A stretch of DNA of 64,000 nt from Monocercomonoides exilis PA203 (GCA_001643675.2 LSRY02000010.1:1364001-1428000); one strand, 5' to 3'. Counted from the stretch's first letter, positions 26,301 through 64,000 are shown. Notes: generated from the letters alone by a model not told the origin. Numbers and translations: made by a program.

Positions 26301-27054
26301 GTTTTGATTTCTTCTTTTGATTTTGCTTCGAAATCATCGTTTCTATCATTGCATTTGCTGCAAATATTGCTATGTGATTGATTTTCTCTCCCCCTTTCTA
26401 CATTTTTTTTTGAAAATCTAAAATTATCGATGTTTTCTGTGCTTTTGTCAACCATTATTTCATTTGAAACAATATTGCCTGGTTCGCACATTTTCTCTTT
26501 CAAAGGGGGTCCAATTTGAGAATTTGTGTTTCCTTTTATTGGTCCTGGTAGTAGCAATGGAAAGGGTGTTAGTAATTCTTTCACGAACGGAGAAAGAGAA
26601 CTCTTTTCAACAGATGAATAAATACGAGTTTTTTTCTCGTAATCGTCATCAATATTCGCTGTAAACCGTTGAATTGGAACTAAAACTCCTGGCGGTAAGA
26701 CAGTAACAGATTGTTGTTTTTGAATATCCTCTTCTTCAGGTGATTTTTGGTCTGAAGAAGATTTCTCTTTATTTCCTTCTTTTCTGTCTGTACTTTTTTT
26801 CTGAACTTTGTTAAATTCTTTACCTATGCATTTCTCTATAAATATACAAATATTGAATCTTCCTTTTTTACTAAAATGTACAAACTGTCTTGTTTTTCGA
26901 ATTTTCTGTTTTCGGAAGAAAGCGAAGCCAAATGGGAATTTTTTGATTCTTCTTTCTTAATATCGTCATAAACCTTTTGCTCCACTTTATCCCATAAAGA
27001 TTCTACAGCAGCTTCAACGCTGTAAGTAGATGGAAAAAAATTGAATTGTGACAT
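20348..27054 (-). CDS. Hypothetical trichohyalin-like E/R/K-rich protein with Ser-rich C-terminus, 2 exons
   Basis: ORF 26836-27054 splices through GTTTG..AG intron 26824-26885 in frame into the 2078-aa ORF. Roughly 700 residues of alternating E and R/K runs. Confidence 0.78.
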
Positions 27055-40199: not shown

Positions 40200-41787
40200 A
40201 TGTCTTCGCGCAAGCGAAGAATATACAACAGTCGGTCGGAGCGAATGTCTCACATCGTTGTTGATGGAGTTGTTCGAATTGCAGATGCTATGAATTGCAA
40301 GAAATTCAGCCATACAGGAATAATGAACGCAGTTTGAGTACTGAGAAAAGGAAGGCTGGTTTGAAAAGTTGGAAGATCTGCTGCAGTAGTGGGTGAAAAA
40401 GAGCAAAGGGTTTTGGATATTATTCACATAAAGGCGAAGTCTTTCAAAGTTTAACTTTAAAAAAAAAGAGAGAGAATTGGTTTGCTTTATTTTTATTAAT
40501 ATGTTTTAATAGTTTGTTTTTCAGATGGAAAATGTTTTTAACGATAGCAATGAAGAAGATACACAATTTTTTGAAGATTCAATGTCCGCCACGGATAACC
40601 ATGTGAAGCTTCATCCGGAGCTGAAGACTGAAACTCCGAAGAATTTGGATATCAACCGACTGGATGTTTCGTGCAGAAGTGTTTGAAAACCATGGTTTAA
40701 AACATTCGATGAGCTGCATGAAAAGTTCCATTACAATCAAGCTTTGATTGTAAATATCGACGAATCTTCAACGCGCGTTCCTTCAGACACAAAACAGCTT
40801 GTTGTTCACACTTCAGATTCGAAAGCAGGTTTTACGAAAGAACCACCAAGAATGATTAATTCCACATTCGTGGCAGCTGTTGCAGCGGGCGTATATGCTT
40901 TTCCTTCAGTCATTTTGTGGCCAAGCGTCAACCTGCCAGATGAGCTGAAATGCCTATTATCTCCAACGCTTGAGATATGGGCAAATGAAAGCAGCTGGAT
41001 GGACAACGTGTGCCTTAAAAGGGATGCTCTCACAGTTCTTCTTCTTTCTGTCATCGAAAGAAGAAAGCGCATGTCACTTGAAAACGAACACATTCTTCTC
41101 CTTCTTGACTCTCATTCATCTCGCGCAGATCCATCGATCTGGCAAGAATTCCAAAAACAACAAGTCGACGTTTTAACCTTCGTGCCACACAGCACACACC
41201 TCTGTCAACCACTGGACAGAGGAGTGTTTGCTGTGTTCAAATCTGAACTGACAAACAGATTTGAGGCTCCCTCTTCTTCTTCATCTTCCTCCAAACGAGC
41301 AGCAATTTCCGACGTTCTGCCTCAAGCTATCCACACTGCATTATCACCTTCTGTAATTCAGAAAGCTTTCGTCTGCAGTGGTGTTCTGTACAATTCTTCT
41401 GGGCCAGTTCTTTTGAAACTGCCCGAATCTTCAATTTACCCTCTTCCATCACGAAGAAATAGATTCAACTTTTATGGAAAAGTGATAACCGACGAAAATC
41501 TTTTAGAGAAATGGGAAAATCATTTGAAAATGAATATTGAAAGGAAAAATGAAATGGATGAAAAGGAGAAAGATGAAGTGAAGACGGTTGTGGATGAAAA
41601 GAAAAAAATAAAAAGAAGATTTCTTCATGTGAAAAACGATGATTCTGATGAAGAAAAGAAAGATAATGCATTAAATCGAGCTGAAGGAAAAAGGAAAGTT
41701 ATCAGAAGAATTAATTCTGATTTTGTTTTCTTCAAATTGTGTTGTTTTTTGAGCTTTTTGCACTTCATTTTTTTTTATTCGGAATAA
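40200..41787 (+). mobile_element. Pogo-like DD35D transposase gene, intron-containing, probably pseudogenised
   Basis: IVNIDES, LLLLDSHSS and HLCQPLDRGVF, with 35 residues between the 2nd and 3rd Asp. Upstream HTH-like remnant contains stops. In-frame TGA at 40684. Likely GTTTG..CAG intron at 40480-40524. Confidence 0.88.
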
Positions 41788-41942: not shown

Positions 41943-43327
41943 CTATGCAATCAAATCAAACTGAAATCCTTTATATTTTGGATCTCCATAAAATGAACGG
42001 ATAATATCTTCCAAGCCTCCTTCTTCCAGTTTATCTAATATATCATTTTTCATATTCTTTCTAACTGCTTCGTTGTTTTCATCTTCATTCTTCCAATTCA
42101 ACTTTTCAATTAGACATGAAAAAAAATTAAACATTCAATTAAAATTTCATAATTCATTGTTGATTGACTCATTTTTTCAGCCATCATGTCAATCGCTCCA
42201 CATGCCATCAAATCACGAATATTTTCTGAATTTCTCATCATCAATCTGAAAAGAGCGATGCATTCAACAACAACTTTTTGATAATTCTTTTCTGAGATTT
42301 TAAACAGTCTCATCGCGCATGTTATCAATTCTGAATTATCATTTCCGAATAGGATATTATTTTCTATAAATATATTCCAAATTGAGTTGAACCATCCTCT
42401 TACAATGAAAACCTCATTATTTCTTTCATTTCTCTTCCAATCAACAATCTTTGACAGTTCTTCAAGTTCTCTTAATGCCTCTCTTGTAAAATTCAGTTCT
42501 TTCACTATCACTCCTTCTAAGCTTCTTTCATTATTAAATCGACTTATCAAGAATCCCCAAGCTGATTGATATGCAAGTCGCGTAAGATTGCGGTGCTCTT
42601 GATGATATTTGATGATTTCTGATATTTCCTTCAAATACATTTCTTTTTCTATTGCCTTTTCATTTTTATTAAAAAAATCGTCAAATTAAACAAAACAATT
42701 TTTCATATTAAATAAAAGAAAATGCGAACATCCCAGTTCTTTAAGTTTCCCAAAGTCAACAAAGCAATTTCTACTTCTTTTTGTGTATCTGCGCTCTCAT
42801 CTTTCTTCAAAGCAGCTTTCAGCAGACAAGGCACACAAATCGATAGTAATTTTGTCGAAGGTTCGTTGATGAGTAAAAGAGAGCATTCGCAAACATCAAT
42901 CAACAGCTTTTCATTTTTTCCTTCTTTTTTCTTTTCTTCATCCACAATAATCTTTTCCAGTCTTTTAGGTAATGGAGTGTATTCAAACCTCGTACCAAAA
43001 TTTGTTATCAAAGATTTGTTAATACCCATATACTTTAGTAAATGAATTATATTATCTTGAGACAATTTCTTTTCTTCAAACATATTATTCACTTTGAAGA
43101 ACGTTTCTTCACTCACCAAGTACTCCACTTCTTTCTCGTCCATCTCATTCATCCATTTAACGAATTCACAAACTTTTGATTCTCGCTCATCAGAAGAACA
43201 ATTTTCAAGATCGGAAAACATTTCTGTGAATTGAACATTTCTTTATGACAGAAAATTCTTTTAATAGAAAAACAAACTTGAAAAGGTTTCCATGGATGAA
43301 GCTTTCTGTTCGTGCAATTTCACGCAT
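41943..43327 (-). CDS. Member of an expanded Monocercomonoides-type hypothetical helical protein family, with a frameshift near the 3' end
   Basis: ATG at 43327, introns at 43241-43277 and 42656-42729. Hallmarks EKKKEGKNEKLLIDVCEC, ICVPCLLKAALKKDES..TQKEVEIALL and EIIKYHQEHRNLTRLAYQSAW (family recognised from memory). Frame changes near the homopolymer at ~42120-42135. Confidence 0.75.
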
Positions 43328-43833: not shown

Positions 43834-46800
43834 TTATTTTGATGAAGCTTCAATCACAATTCCTGCAATTCTCATAACATTAATTGCAGATAACACAATA
43901 CTTTTAGGAGATGAAAACGAAGACAAAGGAATGAATTGGGAGATGGCTTTAAACAGTGGATGGATCCTGTCAGAATCAAGAATGCATTGACGAACATATG
44001 ATGAACGTATGAATGAAGGATGGAGTTCAACAAGAAAACGAATAAGATTGCATAAAGCAAAAAAGAAAGAAGAAGACGCTAAAGGAATTCTATTCCAACG
44101 AGTTATAACTCTTTCGTTTCCGGTTGATGGCGCATCGGTAAGAGCCAATATGCATTCTGCTATTGGAGATGCAAACACAAGAAGACTAATCAGATTCTTC
44201 AGATAGCTGTTCCATTTTGCATATCTTTCTGATTCGCTTTTTTTGATCTTATTTTGTTCTTCAAAATCATTCGAACTATTTTCGCTTGTATTTTGTGTTG
44301 TCTCATTTGAAGTTATTGAGAGAGAAGACGAACTTTCTGCTTCTCTGAAACTTTCATCTTTTTCATTGCAACTTCCCATCTCTCCAACAAACAAGTGAGC
44401 CATTCTGTCCAAGTTGCTTTCAATTATTGAATAATCTTCTCTGACAGCCAGGAACGAATGGATAAAGAACGGAGAAGATATCAGCTTGAGATAAGAGAAT
44501 GAAAAGCCAGGCGTCACAAGAGGAGAAATAACACCAAGAACAGACGAAAACATTTCTGTGTACACATTCATCAATTCGAAAGCACTTATTCTGCTTTGCC
44601 CAGTACGGACATTTGAAACATTGGAATTTATTGAAGTTGCTGGAGTCAATTGAGCTGATGATGAAGATGATGCAGTTTCTGCCTGTGGATTGACGCTGAG
44701 CAAAGGAAGAGTGGAAACAAGAGCTTTCTCACTTTCACCTTCAAGTGACGATGTTGGTATTTGTGATGCAGATGAGGTTCTCGAATGCTGACCTTGGGCT
44801 TTTGGTTGATTCTTCTCAGAACTATTTTCTCTTTGTTTTTGCTTGGCTCCTCCAACTGCAGCGCTTGAGAATTGTTCTTTAGCCTTTGTTTTTTCATCAG
44901 CCGACTTTTCGTCACTTCTCTGAACTGTTTTAGCATTCAGTAATGGAGCAAACGATGATGCATACTTTTGTAAATCAGGAGAAGGAATGGACGAACGAAG
45001 AGTGCGAGAAGGAGCAGGCATTCGTGAAAGAACAAATCCGAAAAGATGAACCAGAATTCGCAAAAATGGAGATTGGAGAATTGAAATGTGGCTGTCCAAC
45101 GAATAGTGAAGAATTGATTCAGAGATGATAATAAGCGTTTGACGGAAAAGTGATATGAACTCAGAAGATGAAAAGAAAGGAATGAAGAAGAAAGATGAAG
45201 GTGCAGTGATCGATGAATGAGAAGAAAATGGAGACAGAGGATTGTGTGGATCAGTTACAAAAAGAGATGTTGAAGATATTCTCATCCCATTTGACAGCGA
45301 TGAAGAAGAAGACGAAGAGCAGAGATTGAATCCCAAAAGAAGAACAAAGTGACAAAATGCATCTGCCATCTCATAGTCGAAATGGCAACTTCGAAACGGT
45401 TGTAATTTTGGTTGAAACTGCTTTGTGCTTTTTCCATCTCCAACTGTAGGCTTTTGTGCTTCCACACCAGTTGCATTCGTGGAAGAAGAAGAAAAAGAAT
45501 CAACATCTGCTTTTTTCTCAATGCCTTCTGTAGAGAGCAACTGTTGGCTTTTGTTTGTTCCCTTTCCATAATCCACATAACCCAATTTGATCGTGTTTGA
45601 ATGAGCAGTTATCGGATTTGAAAGCGATCTCTTCAGTGCAAAGTTCAAAAATAGTCGTAGGAATGGCACAATGAACATAATCTGAAGTGAATCGTTATTC
45701 GATTCAGAAGCTGTTGATGCAGCTTGAGTTAATGGATGTGATGAAGCATGTTCTTCATTCTCGGTATGAACAGAATCTTCTGTTGAAACTTGAGTTTGTG
45801 AATCAACTATCTGTTCATCTCTAGATGACTCTGCTGCAAAAGCTGCTGTTGATACTTCCGCTGAGGCAGATGCCCTTGCTTTAGCTGCCTGAATTTCCTG
45901 TTGTTTCCTTTTCCATCCTGCCATAAACTGCTTCATCTGATAAACGATGCAGAGGAACACTCCATCAACGTGGCGCTGCAGTTTTGTGAACGAAGCGAGA
46001 GTTGCAATTGTCAAAGGCTGATCTTCCATCTTTTTCCAGACAGACTCTAATTGTGAAATAGATGCTGAGAATGAAAGGAACAGATGAAGCGTAGTTTGTA
46101 TCATCTCAAGCGGAATGCTCACCATTCGTCTGGCATTGTCTTCTTGTGTTGTCAGATGCACAAGCATGTGAAGAGGGATCGGCCTTTCTAAAATGAATGT
46201 GTCTGAAGGCTGCTTGCTTTTAACAGCAATTGTTCTGAATCCAACATATGGACGATTGGATCCAAAGTACAACGAAGGTGTGCCAGGATGATTTGGTTGA
46301 TTTCTCAGTGCCTCATCCATCGTAATTGGGGCAACGATAACAATTTTGAGCTCAGAAGAAAGAACTGGATTGACAACTTCGTATGATGCTTCAATTTGAT
46401 TGCTATCGATACGTCGCATTATCTCATCGAATTTGCTGCATTCGCAATGCATTCGGTAAAACATTGTATCAACGCTGTTGAAAACCGTGTCAATAATACC
46501 AACACTTGTTTGACTCTCCATAAACCTGTGTGGTTCTTGTGATATCTCTTGTGCAAGTTCTTCAGCACCAATAGAAGAAGAAGAAGATGATGATGATGGA
46601 GATGATGCAGAAGTTGACTGAGAAGGAAGCGACTGCAAATCAAACTGCCTTGACTCTGAAGCGCTCATCACATATGTGCCATCGTGCAGAGCTGTGCAAC
46701 AGATCCTCTGAAGATGTGTTATCAGATCGTTGTTCTCCTTTAACTGCTCCCAAAACAAGATCCAATACTCAACAGCAGCCACAAGCGGACGCAAAGACAA

Positions 46801-49800
46801 AATGGCTGGTGAAAACTTGAGTTTGTCTGATGATGTTGGATCAGACAAAGGCGATGAAGAAATCATGCTTTGAATATCCTCCATGCTTTCTGCTCTGTCT
46901 ATGTTGACAGCGTTGAGTGGAGTGAGAAACAGTTCGAGCAAAGTGCAGACAAACGACATCGCGCAAAGTGCATTGGGAACAGTTGAAATGTCGATCGCAA
47001 TATCATTCCATTCAGACAGGAGAAGGGCATTTCCACCTCTGTTCGTTCTTTTGAGAATATGTACTTCTTTCTCTGCTTCTTCAACTTTTTCTGTAACAGA
47101 TGTTGTTAAATGAGTTGAAGGATAATTTTCATCTGATCCTTTTCTATTTTTGTTTGCGTATGTATTCTTTTTGAACAAAGCAAGCATTGTGTTGCTGAGA
47201 GCAGTCGAATAGAATTCAAACAGCTCTTCAGAAGACAGCAGACAGCTGCGAAGCAAATAAGACAAACTTGCAATGTGCTGCAGCTGCATAAGCACACACC
47301 AATGTGCCCTTTCCTTGTGACCGAGTCTGCTTGTCAGCAAATACAGCTTCATTGAATCTGTTGGACCTAGCACAATCTCATTAATTCTTGCAATGGCAGA
47401 ATCAGATAAGGAAGAAGAAGAAGCAGAAACAGAAGCAGACGACGCAACTGATTGAGATCGTTTTGACGATATGGAAGAATGTTCAACTTCTTCATCTGCT
47501 ATCTTTGAATCTGTTGTTGTTTTGCTTGCTTCTTCTTTCGATTGAGTTTTTCTCTCTGTTTCTTGTTTTGATTCTGTTTTTGAATCGTTATTTGTTCTTG
47601 ATTCTGAACTTGCATCCTTTTTCGATTCTGTTGAAGTCTTTTTCTCTTTCTCTTTCCCCTTTTCCTTCTCTTTTCGTTTCTCTGCTTCTCCTTTTTGTGC
47701 TTTTGATGAATTTGTGGTATTTGCTGCTTTCTCTGTTTGTGAAGCAGGTGAAGATGAAGGTGATGGCGAATCGATTTGAGTTGCATTATCACCTTTTGAT
47801 GCTTCATTACTCTTTGTTTTTTCAGATGACTGAACTTTGTCTGCACTTTCTCTCTGAGCTTGATCAGAAGATGGTCTCGTTGAATTGTCTGCTTCGGAAT
47901 GTTTATGTGATGTGCGAATCTCATCTCCACGACAAATGATTCTATTGTTCATGAGAAGTCCAGATTTCAGTTCTTCAAAGCAGAATGTTGTGTTAATTGT
48001 GTTGTTTCGAGAGATAACAAGACAGTTGATAAATTGTGGAGGAACACATGTTGGTAGTGCTATTGGTGTGAATGGATTCAAATTCGGATGAACGATTGAC
48101 TCTGAAAATTGAGAATTCGCAACCTCGTCTTTTTGAGATACTTCAGTTTTCCCTTGTTTTTGGTTATAGTTTGGAGATGAAGGGCTTGCTTCACTGGAAG
48201 CAGAAGAAGAAACAGAATTATCAACTGAAGATTCATTGTTTTTGTTGGGGTTGCACCATCTTTGTCTAACACGTGTTGCAATGCCCAATCCTTCATCAGC
48301 AACAGCTCCCATAATTCCAACCAGCACAGCCTTTGGTGAGCGAGAGAACAACATCTCCAGCAGCTTCCCATTGGTTTCAATGAAATTGTCTCTGAATTCT
48401 GTTGGAAGGAATTCGACGCGAGGGAATGCAGAGTGATTGTAAAGATAAATGTGCTCTGCATTCGAAGGCAGAAGAAGCGATTCCTGTTCCAATTGATCAG
48501 ATTTTGGCAGAGGACGATAATTGGGATATGTTCTACACACACAAAGAATACACCATTGTCTGGATGCATCGCCCATCCCGCTTCTTACTCTCTCTTTGAG
48601 CATATTGTCAGTCAGCGTCATCGGATGCTGTGTGGAAACCTTGTTTCCTTCTTGTTCTGGATGTGTGTGTGAATTTGATGGTAGATTGGCGCTATCATTT
48701 TTCTTATTCGCTCCAACTGCATTCGAATTCTGTGTTTCTTTTTTCACCACTTTTTGCACTTCAGCTGCGTCATTTGCAGACAAAACGTAAACTCTGCCTG
48801 TCTTTGCGCACATTGCAGGGTGTGTGGAAGGAACAACACAGACAAATGGAGGATAGCCCTGCATCATCTGCCGAGCAACCAGCCTGGAGAAGTTAGACAG
48901 CAGCTCGTGGTAGAACATGTGGAACAGATACAGCATCTCATTGGAAAGGGCTGTTGAGTAACGATAGCCCGCTCGTATAACTTGGGCTTCTGTTGTGTTC
49001 TGTTTGTCATCGTTAGAAGAAGAACGACTAATCAGCTTAAGCAAAAGCTCTTTTTTGCGTTCAGCTAAAAGTTCAGTAGAGGATGTGGAAGAAGAAGAAG
49101 ATGATGATGCATTTCCAGTTTCTTCTTGAACTTTCTTCCCTTCTGTCACATTCAGCTTTGAAGGAACCTTACCTGTCGATCCATTGTTACTGTTATTACT
49201 CTCACCAGAGCCAACTTCTTGCTCTCTTTTAACTTTGCTCCAGCAATATTCACCAAACCCAATGGCTTTCTGATGAATGAAGTTTCTGCACTCGTTTTCA
49301 GTTCCGCGAATCAATCTGTTCAATTTGCTGAATGATCGTGAAATCATCTGGCTTTGTTCAGATTGGATGAACAAGAGTTCCACTTGAAGATGAGTGAGAC
49401 CATCAGTCAATGGTTGCAAGATGTGCTTTTCAATCAGATTGAGACGCTGTTGTGAAAGAGAATCTTCACACTGAGAGGAAGAAGAAGAGGAGGAAGAAGA
49501 ATCTGATTGCTGTTTTGAACAGGTGATGCAATCGGAAAGAGGAGAGAACAAATAACTTTCCAAAAGTCTCTGCAGATCTGAATGAGGAATGAACGGGCAC
49601 TTCTGTGAATAGGATATGTTCTCATCTTCTTCTCTTCGTTCTCCTTTTTCTCCTTTTGCTTCTTCTATTTCAGTTTTGGATTCTGCCTCTCCTTCTGCCT
49701 CCACTTTAACCTTACTCCCAGTATTTCCAACTTCTTCGTCTTGCTGTTCTGAACTTTCAGAATTCAATGTCTTTCTCTTGCTTTTCCATATTTTTTCCTT

Positions 49801-52800
49801 CTCTTGTCTTTCTCTGATCAAAGAGCGCATTGCGTTCAAGTCAAAACTCCACAGTTTTATTTGCATTTCAGACAGAATTCGCCTCTGCATCTGGTTCATC
49901 ATCTCCATCCATGTTCCTTTGCACTCTTCAAATGTGCTTCCCATCACTCTCTCGAACCAACGGCATATCATCCTCTGCTCTTCCGTCTGAAGCAGAGAAA
50001 GCGTCGGAAACTGCGAGGCAGAGAAAATGCTGTGCTGATACGCCTGGATGATCTGCCTCTCGCGCTGACCGAAACGGTATAAGTCAGTCAATTCTTGTGA
50101 GTGGCTTGAGTAGAAAGGGAAAAGTGATCGCAGGTTGGCAAGATCGCGATAGAGAGGAGAACATGATTGGAGCAGGCGGTTGAGTGTGGGCACTGAAAAG
50201 TTGAGTATTTCATGATGAGACATTTCGCGCACACGAGGCTTGAGGTTGTCCAGGAATATTCCAAATGCTTCGGCTGGCTCGCCATTATGATCCAAATACA
50301 ATGACAATGAAGAAGAAGAATGAGACACTCTTTCAGATTTCTCCTTTGCTTCTTCTTTCATCGTATTCTTCTTCTCGATGGCATTCTGTTCTGCTGCTTT
50401 GACTAAAGAAGAATGTCCATTCAACGAAATTGGTGTGAATTCAAATGGATCGTTCATCTGAGAAGATTTTGGTGAAGCAGCTGTATTTTGTGCTTTCTCT
50501 TTTTTGTTGTTCTTCTTCTGAACTTCCTTCGTTTTCTCTGTTGACGCTCCATTCAACAGAAGTGTTATCAGTGACATTAGTGAGTCTACACTTGGGATGG
50601 ACACTTTGCCTTCTTCAGATGTGTTTGAAGAGTTGTTAACTTGAAAAGAAGATGATGAAGAAGAGGAAGAGTTGGAAGAAGATCCTGATGTTGTCTTCAA
50701 TCCTGTTGTCTGTTTATTTTTATTAGTCATCACAGCTGAGCCAGAAGATTCTTGTACCATCTTCTTCATTGCCTTTTCCCTCTCCTCTTTGATAAGCTCA
50801 GGCAAATGTGACATCTCCTTCACTGCTGAGTCAACATACATCGCACATTTCCTTTGTGTTGCGCTGAACTGACTGTAGCTGTGGTTCACTCTTTCTCTCA
50901 CAACAGCATTTGTGATGTCTGCACTGCTGCTGATGTTATTACTGTGATTGGGTGAGGATCTGCTGATCACAGACAGCCATGGAAGAGATAGTAATGATGA
51001 GTCGAAATAGAAAAACAATGGAGAAAAGGCAAAACGAAGTGCTAATTTGTCTAGCAATTCCTGATGACGAGATAAATTGCTTGATGATGATCCTGTTTCA
51101 TTCTTCCTCTCTTTCTCTTTCTCTTTCTCTTTCCCACCTTTCTTTTTCTCTTCCTCCTTCTCCCCCTTCATCTCTTTTCCAACAAGATTGTTCTTTCCCA
51201 CATTCTCCCCTGACCTTGCAGCCAGCACCATCTCCATCTTCTCCACCGTATTTACAATCTTCTTCCAATCCATCGCATTCATCGCTTGTCTCGCTGCTGT
51301 CCGGAAACTCAGCAGATTCTGCACAAAAGACGGCAGCCGCTGCAGAAACTGCCTCAAAACATCGTCTGCAACTGCGTGGCTGAGCTGGCTGCTCATCCAA
51401 ATGGAGATCTTTTGAGCAATTTCTTCTCTTTCTGAAGGAGGAAGGCTGGTGGCATTGACAGAGAAGGAAGGGGCTGACTGCAAAGAGGACTCGATGGGAG
51501 AGTCGAGGAGTTCGGGATATGAAGAAGGGGATGAATAAGAGGAAGAGGATGTGGTTGATGGCAAAGAAGGAACATATGAAGAAGAAGAAGAGGAGGAGGA
51601 GGAAGAATAAGTTGAAGAAGAAGAAGAAGACAATGACGACGAAGGTCGATAAATTCTCTTTTTGCTCAGAGCAGCAGAAGCAGCATCGGAAGAATAAGGC
51701 TTTGCAATAGGCACAAAAGGAGGAATAGCAGCTGGCTGTGGAAGTCTTGTTTGTGATAACAAGACAGAAGAAGGAGAAGATGAAGATGAGGAAGAGGAAG
51801 CAGAAGAAGAATTAGGAGAAGACGTAGGAAGATGTTGTGCAGGTGCTTTTGAGAACTGTTGAAAAGCAGGAGGAAACATCATCATCTGCTGGGGTGTTAT
51901 TTGAGGAGATTGGTGAAGATTGGAAGATGGAAGAGGAACAGAAACAAGAGAGTGAGATTGAGATTGAGATTGAGGCTGAAGTTGAAGCTGCATCGGAAGC
52001 TGTGATTGAGATTGCAACTGAGGTTGAATCATTCCTTGTGAGGAAGATAATGAAGAAGAAGAAGAAGATGAAGAAGAAGAAGAAGATGATGATGATGAAA
52101 GAGGAGAAAGAGAAGGAGAAAGAGCAGAACTCGTTCCATGTTTAAGAAAGTGATTCTGTTGAGCTTGCCTTTGTTGTTGTGCTTGTTGCATCATCATCAT
52201 CGCCATCGCCATTTCTTTTGTGTTTTTCTTCTTTTCTGTTTGATTAGTTGAAGGAGAAGGAGGAGAAGAAGAAGAAGATGATGATGATGATGATGAAGAC
52301 GATGATGAAGATGCAACTTCTTTGTCTAATGCTCTGCTTATAAGCATCATTGTGAATTCTTTCCCTTCTCTTTGGAGGCAGTTGAGTGACATGAAGAGTG
52401 CAACAGAAGACACAAATGAACGGCCGACGGTGGCGATGGCATCGACAATGGGCTGATCAGCACATTTGGTTGTCATTGGGAAGAGAGGGTTCTCAAGAAG
52501 AGAAGAAGAAGAAGAAGAAGAAGAAGAAGATGATGATGATGATGATGATGAATTTTGTTGTTTCTCTTTTTTCTCTGTTTGTTTTCCTTTTCTGTCAGCA
52601 AATGGCACAAATGACATTGTACGAGAAGAGGCAACAGGAAGGAAAAAGAAGTCTTTGAAGAGAACGTTTTTGACAAAGGCAAAGCCGATTGAAAGAGTTT
52701 GTTTGGCAATCTGTCCAATCAGCTTGCGGGCGAGGCAGATGAAGCCGTGACGGAGAGAGAGAAGGAAGTCTGAAAAGAGAAGGAGATGGCGAGGGATGGA

Positions 52801-55800
52801 AGTGACTGAGGAAGGAGAGGAAGAAGAAGGAGAAGAGGAGGAAGAAGAAGTTGAAGAAGAAGAAGATGATGATGATGAAACTGTTGATGTTGTTGGTGGT
52901 GCTGATACAAGAGGAGGCTTTTGGTGTGGAACAAACGAAGCAGAAAGAGAAGAAAACGTATCTTCATGTGAAGCAGAAGCAGAAGAAGAAGAAGAGAAAG
53001 AAGATGGAACAGTTGCTGTCAGCTTTTGTGGAGCATTAGCATTAGCACCTCCATTCATATTCATGTTATTCATGTTAACATTGCCAATGATGTTGAGAGG
53101 TGTGGCTGGTCTGGCAGACAGAGGAGGTTGCATCGAAGGCACAAAAGGTGCAGAAGAAGTGGAAAGACCAGCAGAAAGATGAAAATTGGGAGGTCTTTGA
53201 GAAGAAGAGGAAGAAGAAGATATTGATGACAATGATAATGATGATGGTTTTAGAGAAGGTGAGGTTGAAGAAGAAGAAGAAATAGAAGATGGAGTGTATT
53301 CAGGTGCCAGTAAAGAAAGTTGTTTTGAAGATGACGAAGACAATGAAGAAGAAGAAGAAGAAGATATTGAGGAAGAGGAAGAGGAAGAGGAAGAGGATGA
53401 TGATGATGATGATGATGGAAAAGAAGAAGGAGAAGGAGATAATCCAGGAACATTCATATGAGGAGCAGGTGTTTCAATCAAAGGCCCTCTCTTTCTGTAT
53501 CCAAACATATTCAGTGCCAGCTGCCTCACAAATGGATCATATTTCACAAATTGTTGTTGTTGTTGCTGCTGCTGTTGCAATGACATTTGCTGAGCAGACT
53601 GCAATGAATGCGAAACAGACTGAAGAAGCATCGAAACAGCCTCTGGGTTGAAGTCGTCGTTGTTCAATGGCTCCATCCGCAATGAATGTGAACTGAGCAG
53701 TTTCTGAGCATCGTAAGTGCGGCGGATGAGGAGGTGTGCGAAAACAGCTGGGCAAGTGATGCAAGGCGGAGAGCTGATGACAGCAGCACCGGGAGTGAGA
53801 GGATGAGAAGAGGAGGATGAAACAAGGGGCTGAGAAGAAGAAGAAGAAGTTGAAGTGGAAGAAGAGGAAGAAGAAGAAGGGGGAAGGTTGGGCTGGATGA
53901 CTGGGCCGAGGGAAAGAGGGCTGGAAGGAAGAGTTGGAGGGAGAGAAGTAAAGAGAGGAGGATGGGGTGAAGGATGATAAGGGGGCATGAGAGAGAGAGA
54001 AGAAGAAGAAGAAGAGGAAGGGAAAGATGAACAAGCAGATGAAGATGATGATTGTGATTGAGCCAATGAAGCCTGTGCTGCTTTAAATGCAGCCATGTCT
54101 TCGTGTAAAGGAAATAGCGATTCTTGAGACAGCTGCAGGGCATGGAACATCATCTGTATCTCAAATTTGACATACATCCGAAGGGGAAGCAAGCTTATCT
54201 GGTTGAGCAGAGCGAATATAGACATCACCCAAGGTTGGCTGGGGGTGAAGACAGCTGAGTTTTTGATAGCGTAGAAGATGCGGCAGACAAAAGCGAGCAC
54301 AAGAGACAACCTTCCTTCTGTGTAGCCAAACATGATCAGCTGTTGGATGTCTAGTTGTTTGGCGAGGATGGGCTTGTTGTGCTTGAGAGTAAGCAGACCG
54401 ACGAATGTGCCGATGAGACGGAGGTGCTGCTTGACATTGGTGACATTGTCGGAAATGGAATTGAGAGAATGAGAAGGAAGAGTGGAATGAGAAGAGAGAG
54501 AAGAGGAGAGAGAAGAAGAAGGATTGAGAGAAGGGGTGAATGTGTGGATGGAGGAAGAGGAAGAGGAAGAGGAGGAAGAAGAAGAAGATGATGATGATGA
54601 TGATGATGTGATGGAAGAAGAAGGAGGAGAAGGAGAAGGAGAAAAAGAAGGTGAAAGTGATTGAGTGTTGGCACTGTTATTGTTGTTTCCTGATGAAGAA
54701 GCAGAATTATGTGGAGTGAGGATGGAAGACAAGTTGATTGGATTTTGTGGCTGTGGCATTGTGAATGTGACTGCAGTTGAACCAGATGAAGATGAAGAAG
54801 AGGAAGAAGAGGAAGAAGAGGAAGAAGAGGAAGAAGAGGAAGAAGAGGAAGAAGAAGAGGAAGAGGAAGAAGAAGCTGAAGAAGAAGCCGATGATGTATT
54901 ATTATTACTCACTCCCTGTGGATGCAGTGGAGTTGAATGCATCAGCACAATAGCTGTCTTTATGCATTGAGTGAGCACTTGTCTCTGTAGCACTTTGTCG
55001 TGTGTGTTGCAGATGAAGTCAGCATAACTCTGCAGATGCTGCTCTTCCTGTGACACCCTCACAAACAGAATGTATTTGGCGATGAATTGCACAAAAGATG
55101 GAGAGGAAGGCGGGGGAGGAGGAGGCATGTTTGCCAAGTCAACCAATCCATCTTGTCTTTTTGCAATTTCTTTCTTCAGCATCGATGCATATGTGTCAAC
55201 ATGGCTCTGATAGGACTTTCTGTGTTTGTCTGTCTCCTTCTGCAGCTTCTGAGCGAAGGCAATTGCATCGTCTTCGGTTGTGGCTGGGGAGATGTTGTTC
55301 CAGCAGCGTGTGATGTATGCTTGCAGCTGATGAGGAGGAATGTCAATTACATCGTTCTCTTCACTCACTGCTTGATTCATTGAAGCAGGCACCATCAGAG
55401 AGAACGAGGAGACGACTGAGGAGAAAGTGCCACGGCGGTAGGAAAGAGGAGGAAGAGAAGAAGATTGCTGCTGCTGCTGCTGCTGCTGCTGTTGTTGTTG
55501 TGTTGATTGTGACTGAGACTGTTGAGACTGTTGTTGCTGAGTGGTTGTATAGAGAGAAGGAGAAAATGTGGGGATGGGTGAAGGGAAGGAGGATAAAGAG
55601 GGGAATGATGGAGTGGCAGCGAAGGGATGCTGGTGAGAGAAGAAAGAAGAAGATGTGGATGATGATGAAGAGGAAGAGGATGAAGAAGAAGAATTCGTTG
55701 GAGTATAATATTGATTTCCCATTGGATTGGATGGGTATGTATCGTTAGATGCAGTCAAACCAGGTGGAAGTTGAGTGATTAAAGAAGAAGAAGACGACGA

Positions 55801-58800
55801 TGATTGCTTTAAAGATTTGTTTGAAGGAAGAACAAATGCAGGGGCAGAAGCAGACAATGAAGATGTGGAAGAAGAAGAAGAAGAAGCATTTTGTTTCGAA
55901 ATTGACAGAAAAGAGGGAGAATTTGAAGGAGTGAATGGAGCAATGGATGCACTGAGTGAAGGAGAAGGTGTGTTTGAGGGAGAAATATTTGAATCTTTCA
56001 GCTGTTTCGCCTGTTGTTTACTCAAACCTCCTCCTTGTGCTTCAGAAAGCTTTCCTAATTTCTCCTGTTTCTGTTTATTTTCTTTATCTTTCTCTTCTTT
56101 CTCTCTCCTTTCTCTCTCCTCCTTTTCTCTTTCTCTTTCTCTTTCCTTCTCTTTCTCTCTTTCCATTTCCATCTCTCTCTCCAACTCTATCTTCGCTCTT
56201 TTGTCTTCCTCATCCATCTCCTCCCTTGCCATCCTCGCCTTCTCCATCTCAAACGCTGCTCTTGTTCTTTCCTCCTCCATTCGCATTGTCTCTCTCATCT
56301 GATACTCCCTCTTCCTCTCCTGCTCACTCTCTCCTTCTCTCAACAGCTGCACATCTTCTTCTCTGCTCACACGCACTTCCAGCTCCCACATCATCCTTCT
56401 TGCCTCTCTCTCTGCTTCTTCTCTCCCTTTCCTTCTCCTTCCTTCTCCTTCCCCTCCTTCTCCTCCTTCCTCTTCTCCTCCTTCTCTCTCCTCCTCCCTC
56501 CTCCTCAGCACCTCCTCCACCTCCCTCACAAACACCTGCTGCTCCTTCCTCATGGCTGGCATTGCGATTATCTCCCTCGCCATTTCTTCGTTCTCTTTGT
56601 AGTCAAATGCAGCCCTCATCTGGATGATCAGATAGATTGCTGTGCCAAACTCCATCGACTGCGGAGGAAAGGCCAGCCAGCTGCAGAGACAAGAGCAGAC
56701 ATCTTTTCTCTGCTCTTCTGACACCATCCGCCTCACAAACATCTGCCCCACCACAGCTGACACTCTTTCAATCACTTCTTTCATCTGAGATGGGAGAAAG
56801 AGAAGAAGAGACAAGATGATCTGTACAGTTGGCACGACACTTAATGCTTCCACTTGAAAGCTTGGAGAAATCTGAGGAAAGGGAGGAAGAGGAGGAAGTT
56901 GGGAGGTTTGTGTTTGTAATTGAGAATTTCCTTGTTGTTGTTGTGATGATATCATTTTAGCTCTGTTTTCTTGCTCTTCCCTTGTCTGCTGATACGTATT
57001 GATGTCTTCCTCTCTCTTCTGTGTGATGATCAGATACCTTCTGAACTGCTCAGCCGATTGCTCAATCTTTTCAATCAGCTCTTCCACTCTTGTCTTTCCC
57101 AGCACAAGCTCAGCAACCCTCTTCCTTGCCAGCTGTCTGCCTTCTTCGAGTGGAGAAGGAGGGTTGGATGGATCAGGAGGAGGAGGCATCTGCAGAAGCT
57201 GTTGGAGCTGTGGATCCAAATTGTGCAAGGAAAGAACTTGAGATGGAGGTTGGACTTGTTGTGACAGTGACTGAAACTGCAAGTGATATTGTTGTTGTTC
57301 CAGTTGTTGTTGTTGATGATGATGGTGTTGTGTTTGAGATTGAAGTTGTGATTGAAGTTGTTGTGCTGACTGTAACTGCAGCTGTATCTGCATCTGCATC
57401 TGTTGTTGTGTCTGAGACTGAACAGATTGTTCAGTCTGTTGCAATTGCTGTGACTGCAGATATTGCAACTGCTGCTGCAGACTCTGCTGATTTGGCTGCA
57501 CTGTGTCTGCAATCTGATACAATGGCTGTACAATCATCGGCTGGAATGATTGCTCTTGTGGTTCTTCTGTTGCTGTTGAGACTTCTGTTGATGCAGATGA
57601 AGATGAAGATGAAGAAGAAGAAGAAGATGATGATGATGATAATGATGAAGATATTGTTATATTTGTTGAAGAGACAGGGGGTGTGGCTGTCACATCCATC
57701 GAAGGAATCTCATATGTCATTGATGTCATTTCTCGTGTGCCAGAAAAGTCAACGTGAGTAGCAGTGCTGTTTTCTGGTTGAGAAGCAGTTAAATTCTCTT
57801 CTGGTGCAAACAACACAAGTTTTGGTTGGATTATCCCGATGTTTGGATGATATTGAATGGTTTGGCTTTTCTCTTCTTTGCTTTCTTCATTTTCTTCTTC
57901 TTCATTATCTTCTTCTTCCTCCTCCTCCTCCTCCATATCTTCTTCTTCTTCTTCTTTTGCTTCTTTCCTTTCATTTTCTCCCTCTTCAACATGTTTATTA
58001 TCATTGGAATAAAGTTCTTCTGGTGCTTGCTGTTGCTTTGCCATTTTAATTGAAAGTGTTTCATCTTCTTGTTGTGTTTCATTCTCTTCTTTCTTTTTCT
58101 TTTTGCCTTTGTTGTTCTCTTTCCCTTTGGATGTTTCGTTCTTTTTCTTTTTCATTTTCTCTTTCTCTTCTTTCTCTTTCTCTTTCCTTTCTCTCTCTTC
58201 TTTCTCTCTTCTTTCTCTTTCTTCTTTCTCTTTCTTTTCCTTCTCCTCTTTCATCTTTCTCTCTCTTTCTTCCTTTTCCTTCCTTTCTCTTTCCTCTCTC
58301 TCTCTCCTTTCTCTCTTCTTCTTCTCTTTCTTCTCCCTTCTCTCTTTCTCTTCCCTTTCTCTTCTTTCTCTCTCTTCTTTCTCTTTCCTTTCTTTCTCTC
58401 TTTCTCTCTCCTTCTGCTTCTCCCTTTCAAGTTCCCTCTTCCTCTCTCTCTCTTTCTCTCTCTCTCTTTGCTTTTCCTTCTCAAGTTCTCTTTGTCTCAA
58501 CCTTTCCCTCTCTCTTTCTCTGTCTCTTTCTCTTTCTCTCTCTTTCTCTCTTTCTCTTTCCAGTTTTCTTTCGATTTCTCGCTGCTTTTCTCTCTCTCTT
58601 TCTGCTTCTCTTTCTTTTTCTTTCTTCAATTTCTCTTCTTCTTTCTGTTTTTGTTCCAATTCTTGTTGTTGAGCTTGGATTTTATCTTTCTCGTTCTCTT
58701 CCTCTTTCTCCTCCTCTTTATTTTCTGTACTCTTTTCCTTTCCTTCTTTATCTTTCTTCTGAATCTGTTGATCTTTCTTTCCTAATTGAACAATCTCTTC

Positions 58801-61800
58801 ATCTGCTTCTTCTCCTTTTTCCTTCTCTTCTCCTTCTCTTCCTTCTCCTTCTCCTTCTGCCTCCATCTCCACCTCCCCCACAATCATCGTATCGTCTGCG
58901 GATGCTGTCGAAGCAGGAGTCTGAGCAGGCAAAGGAGATGGGCTGTCCATTTGTGCTGTTGGAGTGACGGAGAGAGAAGACAAAGGAATCAGCAGAGAAT
59001 CATCTGTGTGTGTCATAAACGTGGACGCTGCTTCGGAAATCTCAGAATTTTTGCTTTTTAAAAATTCAGATTGTGATTTTGATTCTTTTTGGGATGAAGA
59101 ATTGTCTTTTTCTTGTTTTGTTTCTTGTTTATTTTGAGAAGATGTCTTTGAATTTTGACTTTGTTTTTGCTTTTCTTCCTTTTGTTCTTTCGCTTTTTGT
59201 TCCTTCGCTTGTTTGCTGTTGTTCTGCTTCTGATTCTGAGTCTGAGGCTGTTGTGTTGAATTCTGTGAATCTTTCTTCGCTTTCTGATTCTTCTCCTTTT
59301 CTTTTTCTTTCTCCTTCTCCTTTTTATTCTCTTGTTTCTGGTGTTGATTATCTTGTTGTGTCTTCTCATTCTTCTTCTGTTGTTGTTGTTGTTGTCTTTC
59401 GAGTCTTTCCTGTTTTTCCTTCGCTTTCTGCTCTTGTTTCTGCTTCTTTTTGCTCAAAACTTGTGGCTGTTGATTCTGTTGCTGTGTTTGCGATTGAGAT
59501 TGCGATTGTTGTTGCTGCTGCTTCTGCTTTCCTTTGCTTGTCATTTGTGTTTGTGTTTGTTGTTGGCTCTGTTTCGTCTGTGTTTGAATCACTTCTTTTC
59601 CTCCTTTCTCTGCTTTAGTCGCAGAAGAAGAAGAAGCAGAAGCAGAATCAGAAGCAGCAGCAGAAGAAGCTGAAGAAGCATCCATCGCCTCCTTCTCCTT
59701 CTCCTTCATCATCTCGTGCTGTCTGCTTATTTCTCTGCTCACTTGTGCCTGTGGATTGCACAAATGCTGAGCATACTGAGGAAACTGCGCTGCATCGCAC
59801 AGAGCAGAATACAGACGAGACGAGGAATGGAGCAGCGTAACATACGAAAGAGCATCAGGATGGTGTCGGTACAAATGTGTGTTGTGCATGAAGAACGAGA
59901 AAAGAGTGACGGTATTCCGAGCTGGAATCTGATAAGTCGAGATGCCAAAGGTGTCCATCCTTTCTTTCCCGTCTCTGTCCACCAGCTTCTCCTGCATCCT
60001 CCCTCTGAAGATGGAATTTCGCACTGAGTTGATCTCCTCTGGCTCTGAATACATTGTTGTCCATTGGATCTTCGTCCCTGCTGAGCCCAGGCCGAGTGCA
60101 GTGAGGTCGACAAACGATGCCAATTGCTGATTCTCCTTCACCAGCTCCAGCAGCGTCTGGCAGAACGACGCCAGCTTCGAGGAAATGCGGTGGCTCAGAA
60201 GAGAAACAGAGAGAAGTGGGCAGCTGAGCGGGGCAATCATGAAGGGAAAGAGAGAGATGGCCAGGTTTGTGGGCGTGGGAGACGAAAAAGGAGAAACTGG
60301 CTTTGTGTTCGGCTGGAAGATGACTGTGCGGAAATGAGCAGCAATCTCAAAAATTCTTCTCTCCACTGAATGTGTGCACGCTATCCAGATCGGCGCCGTT
60401 GCCTCTCTCGCTCTCTCTCCTTTGTCTGTGCGCTCTTCTTCGTCGTCTTCCATCCCGTCGATCTCTGCCTCTTCCTCCAACTTCCACTTCTGCTGCACAA
60501 ACTCCTCCAGCCACTCTTCCACATCCAGCTGCTTTTGAGAGGCACAATACAACACACAGTCAATCACAAGGCCATAAGACAGACAGCGGAAAGGGAAGGA
60601 GAAGTAGATGGGGATGATATCCTTGTCGGTTCGAGGGAGCGTCATTGGCTGGGGAGAGGAAGAGGAAGATGAAGATGATGATGACGATGACGATGACGAT
60701 GAATCCTTTGCACTGCCACTTCCTCTGAGTCTTCGCATCTTCCTCTGCTTGGAAAACATTGTGAACACACTCAGCAGGTCCTCAGCAACATCTGGGCAGA
60801 TCGCATAGAGCCATCTTCTGTCTATTGAATGGATGACAGAAAGTGTATAATAAGCAGAAGCAGCATAAGACATCAGCTCAAGCGATGAAAAGGGGTCAAT
60901 TTCTTGTTTGAATGCCAGTTCTGGCAGAAGAGTGAGGGTGGATGGCTGAACAAACAGCTGCAGCACCAGAGTGACTGCAGGAGAAGAAGGACACTTTGAA
61001 AATAAACGTGACAGGCACATTGCTTCTACAGCTGAGACAAAGTGAGGAGGGAGCAAGAAAAGGCGGAGGAGAGCGAGAGGAAGGAGAGAGACATCACGCG
61101 AGGCATAAGCTTTGTTGATGGTGGCCATTGTGCGCAGAAGAGGAGGGATTTGATAGTCCTGCATGCCATTGATTGATGACGTGGGAAGAGGGAAAGCAGT
61201 TTTGTTTCGGGCAGATGAGAGCAGAGACAGAGGGATGGGGGGAACAGGTGTGTCTTCATTGGCAAGGAGTCTTGAGAGTGCATAGAAATAACAGTTGATG
61301 TCGCTGACTGAAGAGGAAGAGAGTATCAGAAGCGAGCAGAGCAAAGTGTCAGGCACAAGCGTGGCCACCAGAGTGAAGATGGAGAACGCTGCCTGGAGGA
61401 CAGCCGCGACGTCGAGTGAGTCTTTGCCCTCAGAATAGCACAAGTTGATGATCGGGGGAAAGCTGTACGCCTTCAGCCACTTCGTGATGACTGCCATGCT
61501 CTGCGCTTTCCATCCGTTTGGCGGGAGAGGAGGGACAGGGCCAGCTAAGTTCTCTGAGATGTGCTTTTCGAAAGGAAGGAAGGAGAAGAGGATGTTTGGA
61601 TTGAGTCTCGCAATAGCAACGCCAGCGATGGTGGTGAGGGTGAGGGTGATGTCGAAGACGGAGAAAGCAGAAGAGATGTTGTACAAGTCAGACAGCACGA
61701 GAGAAGAGGGAAGATGAGGATATTCCCAGTCGGCTAGTGAAAACGTGTTTTGGGGAATGGATTTGTCGGGGGAGGGAGAAGAGGAAGAGGAAGATGATGA

Positions 61801-64000
61801 TGTAGATGATGTTGTTGAAGGAGAGGAGGAAGAAGAAGCAGAAACTGATGCTGATGATGCTGATGATGTTGATTGTGATGCACTTTTCGCTTTACTTGCC
61901 TCGTTCATTGCTTGTCTCTCCTTCACTCTGATTTGAATCAATCTTTCTGTCACTCTTCTTTCCATCTGCGGCGGAAGACACGCAAAGAAAAGATCATCCG
62001 GCGAAGAAGAAGGAATCATACTTTCTCCACCTTTTTCTTTGGATTTGGATGGAATTTCTTCGCTTGCTGTGCTATTTGTGCTTTGTATGTCTGTTTTGTT
62101 GGATTCTTTGCCTTTTCCTTTCTTTTTCTCTTTCTCGTTGTCTTCTTTTTCTCTTTCTTCCTCCTCCTTCTCTTCATCCTCATTCCCTCCATCCTCTTCA
62201 TCCTCTTTCTTCTCCTTCCTTTCTCCTTCTGTTCTGATCTCTCCCCATCCACTCCACATGCTTGTCTCTTCGTCTGCATCTCTTCTCTTCATCTTCTTCA
62301 TCTCTGCAAATGACACATGGCTGTCTGTCAGCCTCAAAAACGTCATGAAATACTTCAGCTGCACCGAAATGTCCTGCCAAAGCAAGTGCGACACACACAT
62401 CTGCGTCTTGTCGGAGAAGCTGTTGAAGCGGAACCGCTCCAGCATAGCCAGCTCCTCCCTCCTGTTTGCCTCTCCCTTCGAGCGATGCTTCGGAATGGGC
62501 GTTTGCTCTGTGATGGATGCCACCACTGCTGCCAGCGTCGATGCATTCACCGTCACCAGCTGGTGGAACGGGAACGGCTTGAGCTTGGCCTTCTTGCTGA
62601 TGGCTTCGGCAGTCAGCCCTTCCTTCATCTCTGGCTGCAGTGCAGACGCAGACGCCCTCACAGAGTTCTCTATGCGCTTCATGAACACTGTTGTCCGCTC
62701 CATCTCGCCGTTCAGCAGAGGAAGCGGCAGAGTGCTCAGCTGAAAAACAGAATTCTGCACATCGCTGGACATCGCTTCAAAGGCAGCATCGGAGAAAAAA
62801 GGCTGCTGGAAAAACTGTTTCGCGTCGGGTGAGACAAACAAGAAGATGAAATATTCGAGTAATCCGATGCTCTTCAGAGAAGAAAGGTAAGACCAGCCGA
62901 ACGGCTGCTCCCGCTGCTTGTACATGTTCAGCTCTTCTTCGGGGCTGTCCACGATTATCTGCTCAATCAGCTCGCCGCTGTCGAGATGGATTCCGCCTTC
63001 GATTGGAGTGTCCAGACAGTCAACCACGTCTTTCACATCGGCTGTGACATCGCCCATCAGCCGCAGCTTCATCTCGTTCTGGCGATGCTTTGGATCGCGC
63101 CTGTGCTGCTCGAAATACACGGCTAGCATTGATACCCCGCAGACTTTGCAGTATACATTTGGCTGAGAAAATGTAGCTTGAAGTTGTTTGGAATTTATTG
63201 GATCGTTTTGCAAAGAAACATTGGCATTTGGCTGATATATCACATAGATCATCTTTGGAAGTGTAAATTTTGTCGATTCCCAGCCTTTCCACTTCCCAAT
63301 GTTCCACACAACATCAAAGCTTTTTATTACAAATTGCTCAAACATATGATAATCCATTTGAGGATGGTTTCTTAAATATGAATGTCTTAAAACTGCTATA
63401 AGCGCATGTAAAAACTGTTCATATTCTTTTGATGCTTTAGCCTCTCGAGGAATTAAATGTAGCTGTCTGACCGCATGCGAAAATGTTTCAAAGTTTGTGT
63501 TATACTGAAGTTGTGAAACAAATGCAAGATTTGAAAAAAGTGAATGTGCAGCATTCAAATCAAGTACCACTCCTCGAGTTTGTTCTCCATAAAAGTTAAC
63601 AAGCACTAAAATTTTATAGAATTTAATATTTATCGAAAAAATTAAAAAAATTATCTTGCAAACATGACAATTCCCCACATTCCAAGTATGATGACATAAG
63701 TGAAGCAGCAGTTCGCAAAATTTGATCATATATTCTTATTTCTTCCAGTTGTTCCATATAGCCATAAACAACAGATGAAGATATAGCTTGCAATCCTGAA
63801 TTCAAAAAATATGGTGCATTTTTCTGCTGCAGCTCAATAACGCGTTCGTTTATATTTTTAATATTCTCTATATAGCGATTTATTTTTTCTTGTTGGTGAA
63901 GAAACTCCGATTGCTATGAATATGGAAAAAAATGAAGCATAAAAATTAAAATATTAAAAAGCAAGGCAAACAGATTTTGAATTTAATCGTAAAAGTTCTA
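43834..64000 (-). CDS. CNOT1: Giant CCR4-NOT scaffold subunit 1 (CNOT1/Not1) homologue, >6,600 aa, 5' end beyond the window
   Basis: Domains in canonical order: TTP-binding HEAT (~57150-56560), CAF1-binding MIF4G (~55350-54120; FIAKYILFVRVSQE, IGTFVGLLTLKHNKPILAKQLD, VFTPSQPWVMSI, KFEIQ), CN9BD/DUF3819 (~52790-51280; VKNVLFKDF), NOT1 C-terminal domain (~45380-43890; QSPFLRIL, SPLVTPGFSFSYLKLISSPFF, HPSFI). Upstream exons 63664-63913 and 63972 onward splice in frame via GTTTG introns 63606-63663 and 63914-63971. Confidence 0.88.

Follow-up and report, generated by a model that had tools for sequence, protein, structure and literature searches.

The closest described counterpart to the locus considered here is the animal adaptor Tob2, in which two cooperating PAM2 motifs bring the Caf1 deadenylase to PABP, the protein that binds poly(A), with phosphorylation of the motif flanks weakening the contact and phosphorylation of Ser4 in the second motif strengthening it (PMC7430666). 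The PAM2 passages of a 2023 review concern Tob (PMC10157403). A 2025 review of CCR4-NOT, in which PAM2 and MLLE (the PABP domain that binds PAM2) have 0 occurrences, describes the engagement of PABP-coated tails, with PABP shielding or promoting, as ambiguous (PMC12746107). In fission yeast the nuclease Ccr4 binds Pab1 directly, and weakly, at the Pab1 C-terminal region, and Pab1 reportedly blocks CAF1 when the latter acts alone (PMC6024076). An earlier note on the present DNA starts from CCR4-NOT normally reaching PABP via adaptors; taken as the sole route, this premise goes too far in view of the direct contact in fission yeast. A true Ccr4 is lacking in trypanosomes and Giardia and is present in Trichomonas (PMC2425496). 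Against this background we describe an expanded Not1 gene of the oxymonad Monocercomonoides exilis PA203 that carries five PAM2-like 12-mers around its CAF1-binding domain, within a stretch of 64,000 nucleotides (GCA_001643675.2 LSRY02000010.1:1364001-1428000) that we call the window and from whose first letter all positions are counted.

We consider it on balance probable, by analogy with Tob, that this Not1 acts as a built-in PABP tether, a prediction about binding in which one to three of the motifs are most likely to be functional. Judging from the sequence, the protein would likely grip mRNA tails directly and not via a separate adaptor. The features that matter for this reading are given below, and all five motifs that the earlier note had picked out are present, in frame and in one open reading frame (ORF).

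43834-63735, minus strand: expanded Not1/CNOT1 ORF of 6,633 codons in the standard code, recognised by its open frame and domain matches.
55927-55962, minus strand: motif M1, PSLSASIAPFTP; L3, S4, F10 and P12 fit PAM2, and Ile7 is a misfit.
55828-55863, minus strand: motif M2, SSLSASAPAFVL; L3, S4, A7 and F10 fit, with Leu12.
55825..55863, minus strand: M2 taken as a 13-mer, SSLSASAPAFVLP, with Pro at position 13.
54130..55095, minus strand: CAF1-binding MIF4G domain (Pfam PF16415; PDB 4b89 and 4gmj; Foldseek).
53491..53754, minus strand: small helical module ending in N-x-F-G-Y (alignment; helices H237-257, H272-302 and H309-318 of the model).
53413..53448, minus strand: sixth and weaker candidate, PGLSPSPSSFPS; L3, S4, P5 and F10, with Pro7 and without Pro12.
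53290-53325, minus strand: motif M3, KQLSLLAPEYTP; L3, S4, A7, E9 and P12 fit, with Tyr10 as in Streblomastix.
53137-53172, minus strand: motif M4, AGLSTSSAPFVP; L3, S4, T5, F10 and P12 fit, with Ser7.
52927-52962, minus strand: motif M5, DTFSSLSASFVP; F3, S4, F10 and P12, with Ser5 and Ser7.

The ORF at 43834-63735 is an expanded oxymonad Not1, and the identity that had been proposed for the scaffold is borne out by the Pfam match of its CAF1-binding MIF4G domain (E 3.5e-35), by sequence matches in the PDB and by the fold of its model. A Ser-rich insert of ~165 amino acids (aa) interrupts the domain, leaving conserved halves at 54931-55095 and 54130-54432. The C-terminal half matches the yeast and human NOT1 structures in sequence (4b89 and 4gmj; E 4e-15), and its AlphaFold2 model superposes on human NOT1 (4gmj) with a root-mean-square deviation of 1.1 A over 109 columns in Foldseek. 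The CAF1 interface of NOT1 has a core of P1209, V1251, F1252, P1257 and W1258 and a periphery of K1208, H1212 and K1218 (PMC3510486). Here the equivalents of all 5 core residues and of K1208 are kept, as are those of N1207 and S1249, with H1212 replaced by Ala and K1218 by Gln. Because domain, fold and interface residues are retained, the scaffold can be named as Not1 and, going by sequence and model, likely still binds CAF1.

To what extent do the motifs conform to PAM2? The definition holds a hydrophobic residue at position 3 (Leu, sometimes Pro or Phe), Asn or Ser at 4, Pro, Val or Thr at 5, an invariant Ala7 and an invariant Phe10, and Ala at position 5 makes binding 5-fold weaker in Paip2 (PMC2854688); position 7 rejects a bulkier side chain, where Ile would clash, and Trp10 is tolerated (PMC7356810). 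Position 3 is hydrophobic in 5/5 motifs here (L, L, L, L and F, from M1 to M5), and position 4 is Ser in all five and Asn in 0/5. Position 5 is Thr in M4 only, being Ala in M1 and M2, Leu in M3 and Ser in M5; position 7 is Ala in M2 and M3, Ile in M1 and Ser in M4 and M5; position 10 is Phe in 4/5 and Tyr in M3, a residue that the ELM PAM2 pattern accepts; and position 12 is Pro in 4/5. By rule score M3 leads the whole protein (9.9) and M5 comes last of the five motifs (7.2); the best Pfam PAM2 score is that of M2 (15.1 bits vs a cut-off of 20). Since Ala7 occurs only in M2 and M3, we class these two as fair PAM2 candidates and M1, M4 and M5 as PAM2-like, and for the same reason the idea of five equivalent sites, with which the earlier note began, is unsupported.

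Other parts of that description need smaller changes. Its coordinates were right to within one base, M1 being one base off, and a small residue at 7 with Pro at 12 holds for all the motifs except M1, with its Ile7, and M2, with its Leu12 and Pro at 13. M3-M5 had been placed just C-terminal of MIF4G, and they begin ~270 residues past its end, behind the helical module. Disorder of the linkers stands for M3-M5, which have a predicted local distance difference test score <50 and no secondary structure in a model whose alignment is shallow over these segments, and is a matter of composition only for M1 and M2. The candidate PGLSPSPSSFPS was absent from the earlier list. Two further stretches were not accepted as PAM2. 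One, GTFSSVVSSFSL (aa 2769), is similar to conserved sequence ahead of the domain in a Blattamonas nauphoetae homologue, and the other, DLQKYASSFAP (aa 6253), is a match that stands by itself. Contigs X3 and X4, from two RNA libraries, span 55511-56062 including M1 and M2, ungapped and unchanged, which does not in itself prove transcription; the stretch is present in eight runs of two studies, and among the contig pieces listed M3 and M5 are uncovered and M4 occurs in a DNA run only, so that these pieces are uninformative on splicing there.

Low-complexity sequence rich in Ser, Pro, Leu and Phe might throw up such motifs by chance, and Ser at positions 4-7 comes cheaply where Ser and Thr make up 30-71% of the residues around the motifs. 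Comparison with shuffled sequence revealed an excess. The ELM-type PAM2 pattern has 2 matches in the 6,633 aa vs 0.09-0.16 in shuffles (2,000 per setting; P 0.003-0.011), or vs 0.18 in shuffles that leave runs of Ser and Gln intact (P 0.018), and a relaxed pattern has 4 vs 0.50 expected over the whole protein (P 0.002). The excess is specific to the spacing: in the 471 aa of the two linkers, [LF][SN]x(n)[FY]x[PL] has 6 matches at n=5, with GTFSSVVSSFSL as the sixth match and not counted as a motif, vs 0-1 times at each of 11 other spacings; the remaining 6,100 aa of the protein hold 0 matches at n=5. Aromatic residues with [LF][SN] 7 and 6 places upstream likewise number 8/25 in the linkers vs 0/20 in other Ser-rich stretches of this protein (Fisher P 0.006). 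A leave-one-out profile ranks each motif 5-11 among 6,624 positions, a ranking in which the four motifs used for training also take part. In 8,170 aa from seven further ORFs of the window there were 0 ELM-type matches and 1 relaxed match, and there was no reversed decoy.

Because the choice of linkers followed from the motifs already noticed, and several patterns were tried, the whole-protein P values (0.002-0.02) are the fair ones, and by these the motifs are more frequent than in shuffles. Their modest size, the number of patterns tried and the failure of every motif to pass Pfam are what speaks for chance; the spacing specificity, the run-keeping shuffles, the other Ser-rich stretches without the upstream pair, the absence of a reversed decoy, the 0 ELM-type matches in other ORFs, and an independent copy in Streblomastix speak against it, and we regard chance as largely refuted already and very improbable. 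Recent DNA duplication was also rejected as the source of the motifs, because they share residues and mostly differ in codons: the copies have the same codon at 16/45 identical-residue pairs, and 10-22 of 36 nucleotides alike.

We then turn to relatives, drawn from a search of 1.84 billion representatives that returned 842 homologue matches, of which the best 150 of 842 were analysed; 130 of these 150, each with at least 190 aa of the domain, were placed in one tree with the window. There the window sequence falls beside P0048, P0026, P0075 and P0020 at a support of 0.93, with inner nodes at 0.62-0.67 and a possible contribution from long branches. Two of these come from oxymonads, P0048 being an incomplete protein of Streblomastix strix and P0075 the Not1 of Blattamonas nauphoetae, and P0026 and P0020 are probably Blattamonas paralogues, going by their accession series. 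The N-x-F-G-Y module, which has no Pfam match at 53491-53754 on the minus strand, is common to the window, P0048, P0026 and P0075 and partly present in P0020 in the alignment, and is the anchor that sets the downstream motifs in register across the oxymonad homologues. Past this same anchor Streblomastix has LNVEAAPYQP, a near-canonical PAM2 in the same linker with Leu3, Asn4, Val5, Ala7, Tyr10 and Pro12, with which M4 aligns (MAFFT). Its score is equalled by 0/5,000 shuffles of the 106-aa linker that holds it, and a profile made only from the window puts it first. In P0026, the sequence LSASTAGF lies upstream of the domain (23/20,000 shuffles), to which the core of M1 is identical at 6/8 residues and whose type of 8-mer occurs once among 146 non-oxymonad proteins. 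A strict pattern has 2 matches in the 4 oxymonad homologues vs 0.08 expected (P 0.003), and 1 vs 0.94 expected in the 146 other Not1 proteins. Conservation in relatives, which the earlier note had left to be checked, is patchy: clear in Streblomastix, and faint or eroded in all three paralogues of Blattamonas type.

These same paralogues bear on another explanation, that the downstream element is a structural peptide which packs on the F-G-Y module or on MIF4G, its likeness to PAM2 being incidental. P0026 and P0075 have an [FI]xxxxLxY element 4 residues past the folded module, with Tyr10 kept even where Ala7 is lost, as packing would have it. In the window and in Streblomastix, however, the element lies 20-60 or more low-complexity residues away, is repeated and is unstructured in the model, and packing would leave M1 and M2 unexplained, so that we give this explanation a slim chance of being correct.

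A number of observations weigh against a PABP tether. Three of the five motifs (M1, M4 and M5) are without the Ala7 that PMC2854688 calls invariant, M3 has Tyr10 where the same source calls Phe invariant, and neither Asn4 nor Pro or Val at position 5 occurs in any of the five. A Pfam PAM2 scan (PF07145), which the earlier note had proposed as a check, put 0/5 motifs above the cut-off and left M1, M3, M4 and M5 unreported. Among the homologues, the P0075 motif (INPSALNYRS, past the anchor) is borderline at P 0.051 and sits just 4 residues from the folded module, and the post-anchor stretches FPISRLDYKL of P0026 and LNPIITKHVP of P0020 both fail. In P0026 the profile made from the window puts LSASTAGF no higher than 4th, and it places the post-anchor motifs of P0075 and P0020 outside their top five; of the two strict oxymonad matches, that at residue 1264 of P0026 is not in a linker; and the covered part of the upstream linker in the partial Streblomastix record holds no motif. 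PAM2 as a general feature of Not1 was rejected, with 7 matches vs 5.7 in the 150 representatives, and the ESM Atlas gave no usable match for the M3-M5 stretch. Finally, all four PAM2 motifs of the fungal protein Upa2 bind Pab1 yet are dispensable (10.1101/455378).

The last point, together with the odd position 7 recurring across genera, is why we allow for motifs that are real and selected, and that fit an MLLE-type or similar pocket, but that serve something other than deadenylation: they could bind another MLLE protein or partner, or place the protein in messenger ribonucleoprotein granules, and tails would be shortened without them. The recurrence of non-canonical positions 5 and 7 (LSASIAPF, LSASTAGF) suggests a different pocket, and MLLE is also found in UBR5 (PMC2854688). 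Such a role is harder to square with motifs that are limited to the two linkers flanking the CAF1 site, as the n=5 count over the rest of the protein shows, and with a Streblomastix copy that is near-canonical, and we hold it to be unlikely.

Under the preferred reading, that of a Tob-like tether, CAF1 would sit on MIF4G between the two groups of motifs, and the MLLE domains of tail-bound PABP would bind the motifs; because these lie to either side of the CAF1 site, CAF1 would be held near its substrate. M2 and M3, and perhaps M4, would be the working sites, with M1 and M5 weak or dependent on a tolerant host MLLE, and several weak sites could give avidity on a tail bearing several PABP molecules. 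Ser4 of all five motifs and the flanking Ser and Thr residues might serve as a phospho-switch by analogy with Tob2, which is speculative because Ser4 is also cheap in Ser-rich sequence. A more far-reaching version, in which Not1 took over Tob-like docking in oxymonads, with all five motifs binding several PABPs, a Ser4 phospho-switch, no adaptor and independent origins in Dolichomastix, P0130 and P0049, strikes us as doubtful.

A host MLLE domain is plausible by analogy, because representative PABPs across eukaryotes retain the C-terminal domain in a survey (PMC5862402). The main text of the oxymonad genome paper (PMC6759080) leaves PABP unmentioned, and an MLLE search with a giant-virus protein as query returned 8/49 candidates, none identified as oxymonad. 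Separately, the MLLE signature matched 14 times in viral contigs (L001-L014), many of the matches being giant-virus non-PABP proteins with an MLLE domain, and L010 has PF00658 at 1784-2704 on the minus strand (E 1e-20).

In wider searches for relatives, a word-index search with the window domain gave 0/469 candidates, a three-oxymonad profile gave 6 matches among 7,997 candidates (proteins up to 2,000 aa) with P0048 as the only oxymonad, and none of the 138 pattern matches from a metagenome scan was confirmed. Across the Not1 set, upstream linkers have 9 matches vs 4.7 (P 0.04), several of them in folded sequence, and downstream linkers 3 vs 2.5. Single PAM2-like motifs do occur in the Not1 linkers of other protists (P0088, P0130, P0049, P0023 and P0138) and are leads only, among them PSPHAAPFQP in the green alga Dolichomastix (P0088) and LEAGATPFTP in its sister P0130, without significant enrichment over the 146 proteins. 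P0075, P0026 and P0020 are three divergent Not1 paralogues, apparently of Blattamonas, and the P0026 record has an N-terminal WD40 propeller, whether truly fused or joined in the gene model.

The rest of the Not1 protein is recognisable in parts, at the following places.

61642..61671, minus strand: short, conserved N-terminal HEAT-region block, common to P0075 (blastp E 1.6e-4) and P0026 (E 1.0).
56047..56091, minus strand: end of a charged, coiled-coil-like stretch ahead of M1 and M2 (sequence comparison).
52765..52794, minus strand: first part of the long helix that closes the downstream linker (helix H557-603 in the model).
44434..44568, minus strand: first part of the C-terminal Not1 domain, matching PF04054 from position 18 to 62 out of 372 (E 2e-5; 24.1 bits vs a cut-off of 22.7).

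At ~6,600 aa vs roughly 2,000-2,600 aa in typical full-length homologues, this Not1 is about 2.5-3 times as long, the expansion consisting of Ser-, Gln- and charge-rich inserts that include a charged stretch of 1,100 aa (in the region of aa 1330-2200). Its true 5' end is probably upstream of the start of the frame, because an AT-rich, intron-like stretch can be read by eye near 63607-63663. HEAT, TTP-binding and DUF3819 domains have no Pfam match in the window, and short blocks align to P0075, which itself has a weak Pfam HEAT match. A charged stretch comparable to that ahead of M1 and M2 precedes LSASTAGF in P0026. The helix that begins at 52765..52794 has no Pfam match and is probably the CAF40-binding (DUF3819) domain, going by its position and by the domain order in P0049 and P0088. 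The PF04054 match covers 45/372 positions; the remainder of the C-terminal domain is divergent or truncated.

Elsewhere in the window there is a DDE_1 transposase-like ORF at 40687-41787 on the plus strand (E 1.7e-11), as well as three long minus-strand ORFs at 6046-13992, 14709-18281 and 20348-26956 (2,648, 1,190 and 2,202 aa) without a significant Pfam match, the latter two in strongly skewed, charge-rich sequence. Downstream of Not1, at 42110-43242 on the minus strand, two adjoining short ORFs appear to be exons of one unrelated helical protein, also without a significant Pfam match.

A literature search of limited depth found no PAM2-bearing Not1, and with Not1 and PAM2 each known, it is their combination that appears to be new. 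If true, docking on PABP borne by the scaffold would add a third solution to the known two, adaptors and contact of Ccr4 with Pab1, and would do so in a lineage distant from animals and yeast; it predicts that a fragment of Not1 comprising linker and MIF4G renders CAF1 active on PABP-bound poly(A).

Set beside known systems, the locus most resembles Tob1 and Tob2 in having several PAM2-type motifs in a Ser/Thr-rich disordered region beside a Caf1-associated domain (PMC7430666, PMC10157403) and in sharing Ser4 with Tob's second motif (PMC7430666); it differs in that Tob is a separate small animal adaptor whose BTG domain sits on Caf1, whereas here the motifs are in Not1 itself and are five in number, three of them deviating at position 7. 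With the Not1 of yeast and human (4b89, 4gmj; PF16415, PF04054) it shares the MIF4G fold, most interface residues and, going by short or partial matches, the upstream HEAT block and the C-terminal Not1 domain, and it departs from them in its length, the Ser-rich insert within MIF4G, the extra F-G-Y module and the PAM2-like motifs. Like the PAM2 family (eRF3, Paip2, ataxin-2 and PAN3; PF07145), the motifs sit in sequence taken as disordered, with a hydrophobic residue at 3, a polar one at 4, an aromatic one at 10 and mostly Pro12, but unlike that family they have Ser4 throughout, Ala, Leu, Thr or Ser at 5, Ala7 in only 2/5 and Tyr10 in M3, and none scores as high as Pfam requires. The Ustilago maydis protein Upa2 is likewise a large scaffold with a PAM2 array, of four motifs, but is an mRNA-transport factor and not a deadenylase subunit, and its motifs can be dispensed with (10.1101/455378). 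In fission yeast no separate adaptor stands between the Ccr4-Not complex and PABP (PMC6024076), the difference being that there the contact is made by the nuclease Ccr4, with PAM2 and MLLE unmentioned in the cited passages of that paper, and here it would be made by the scaffold.

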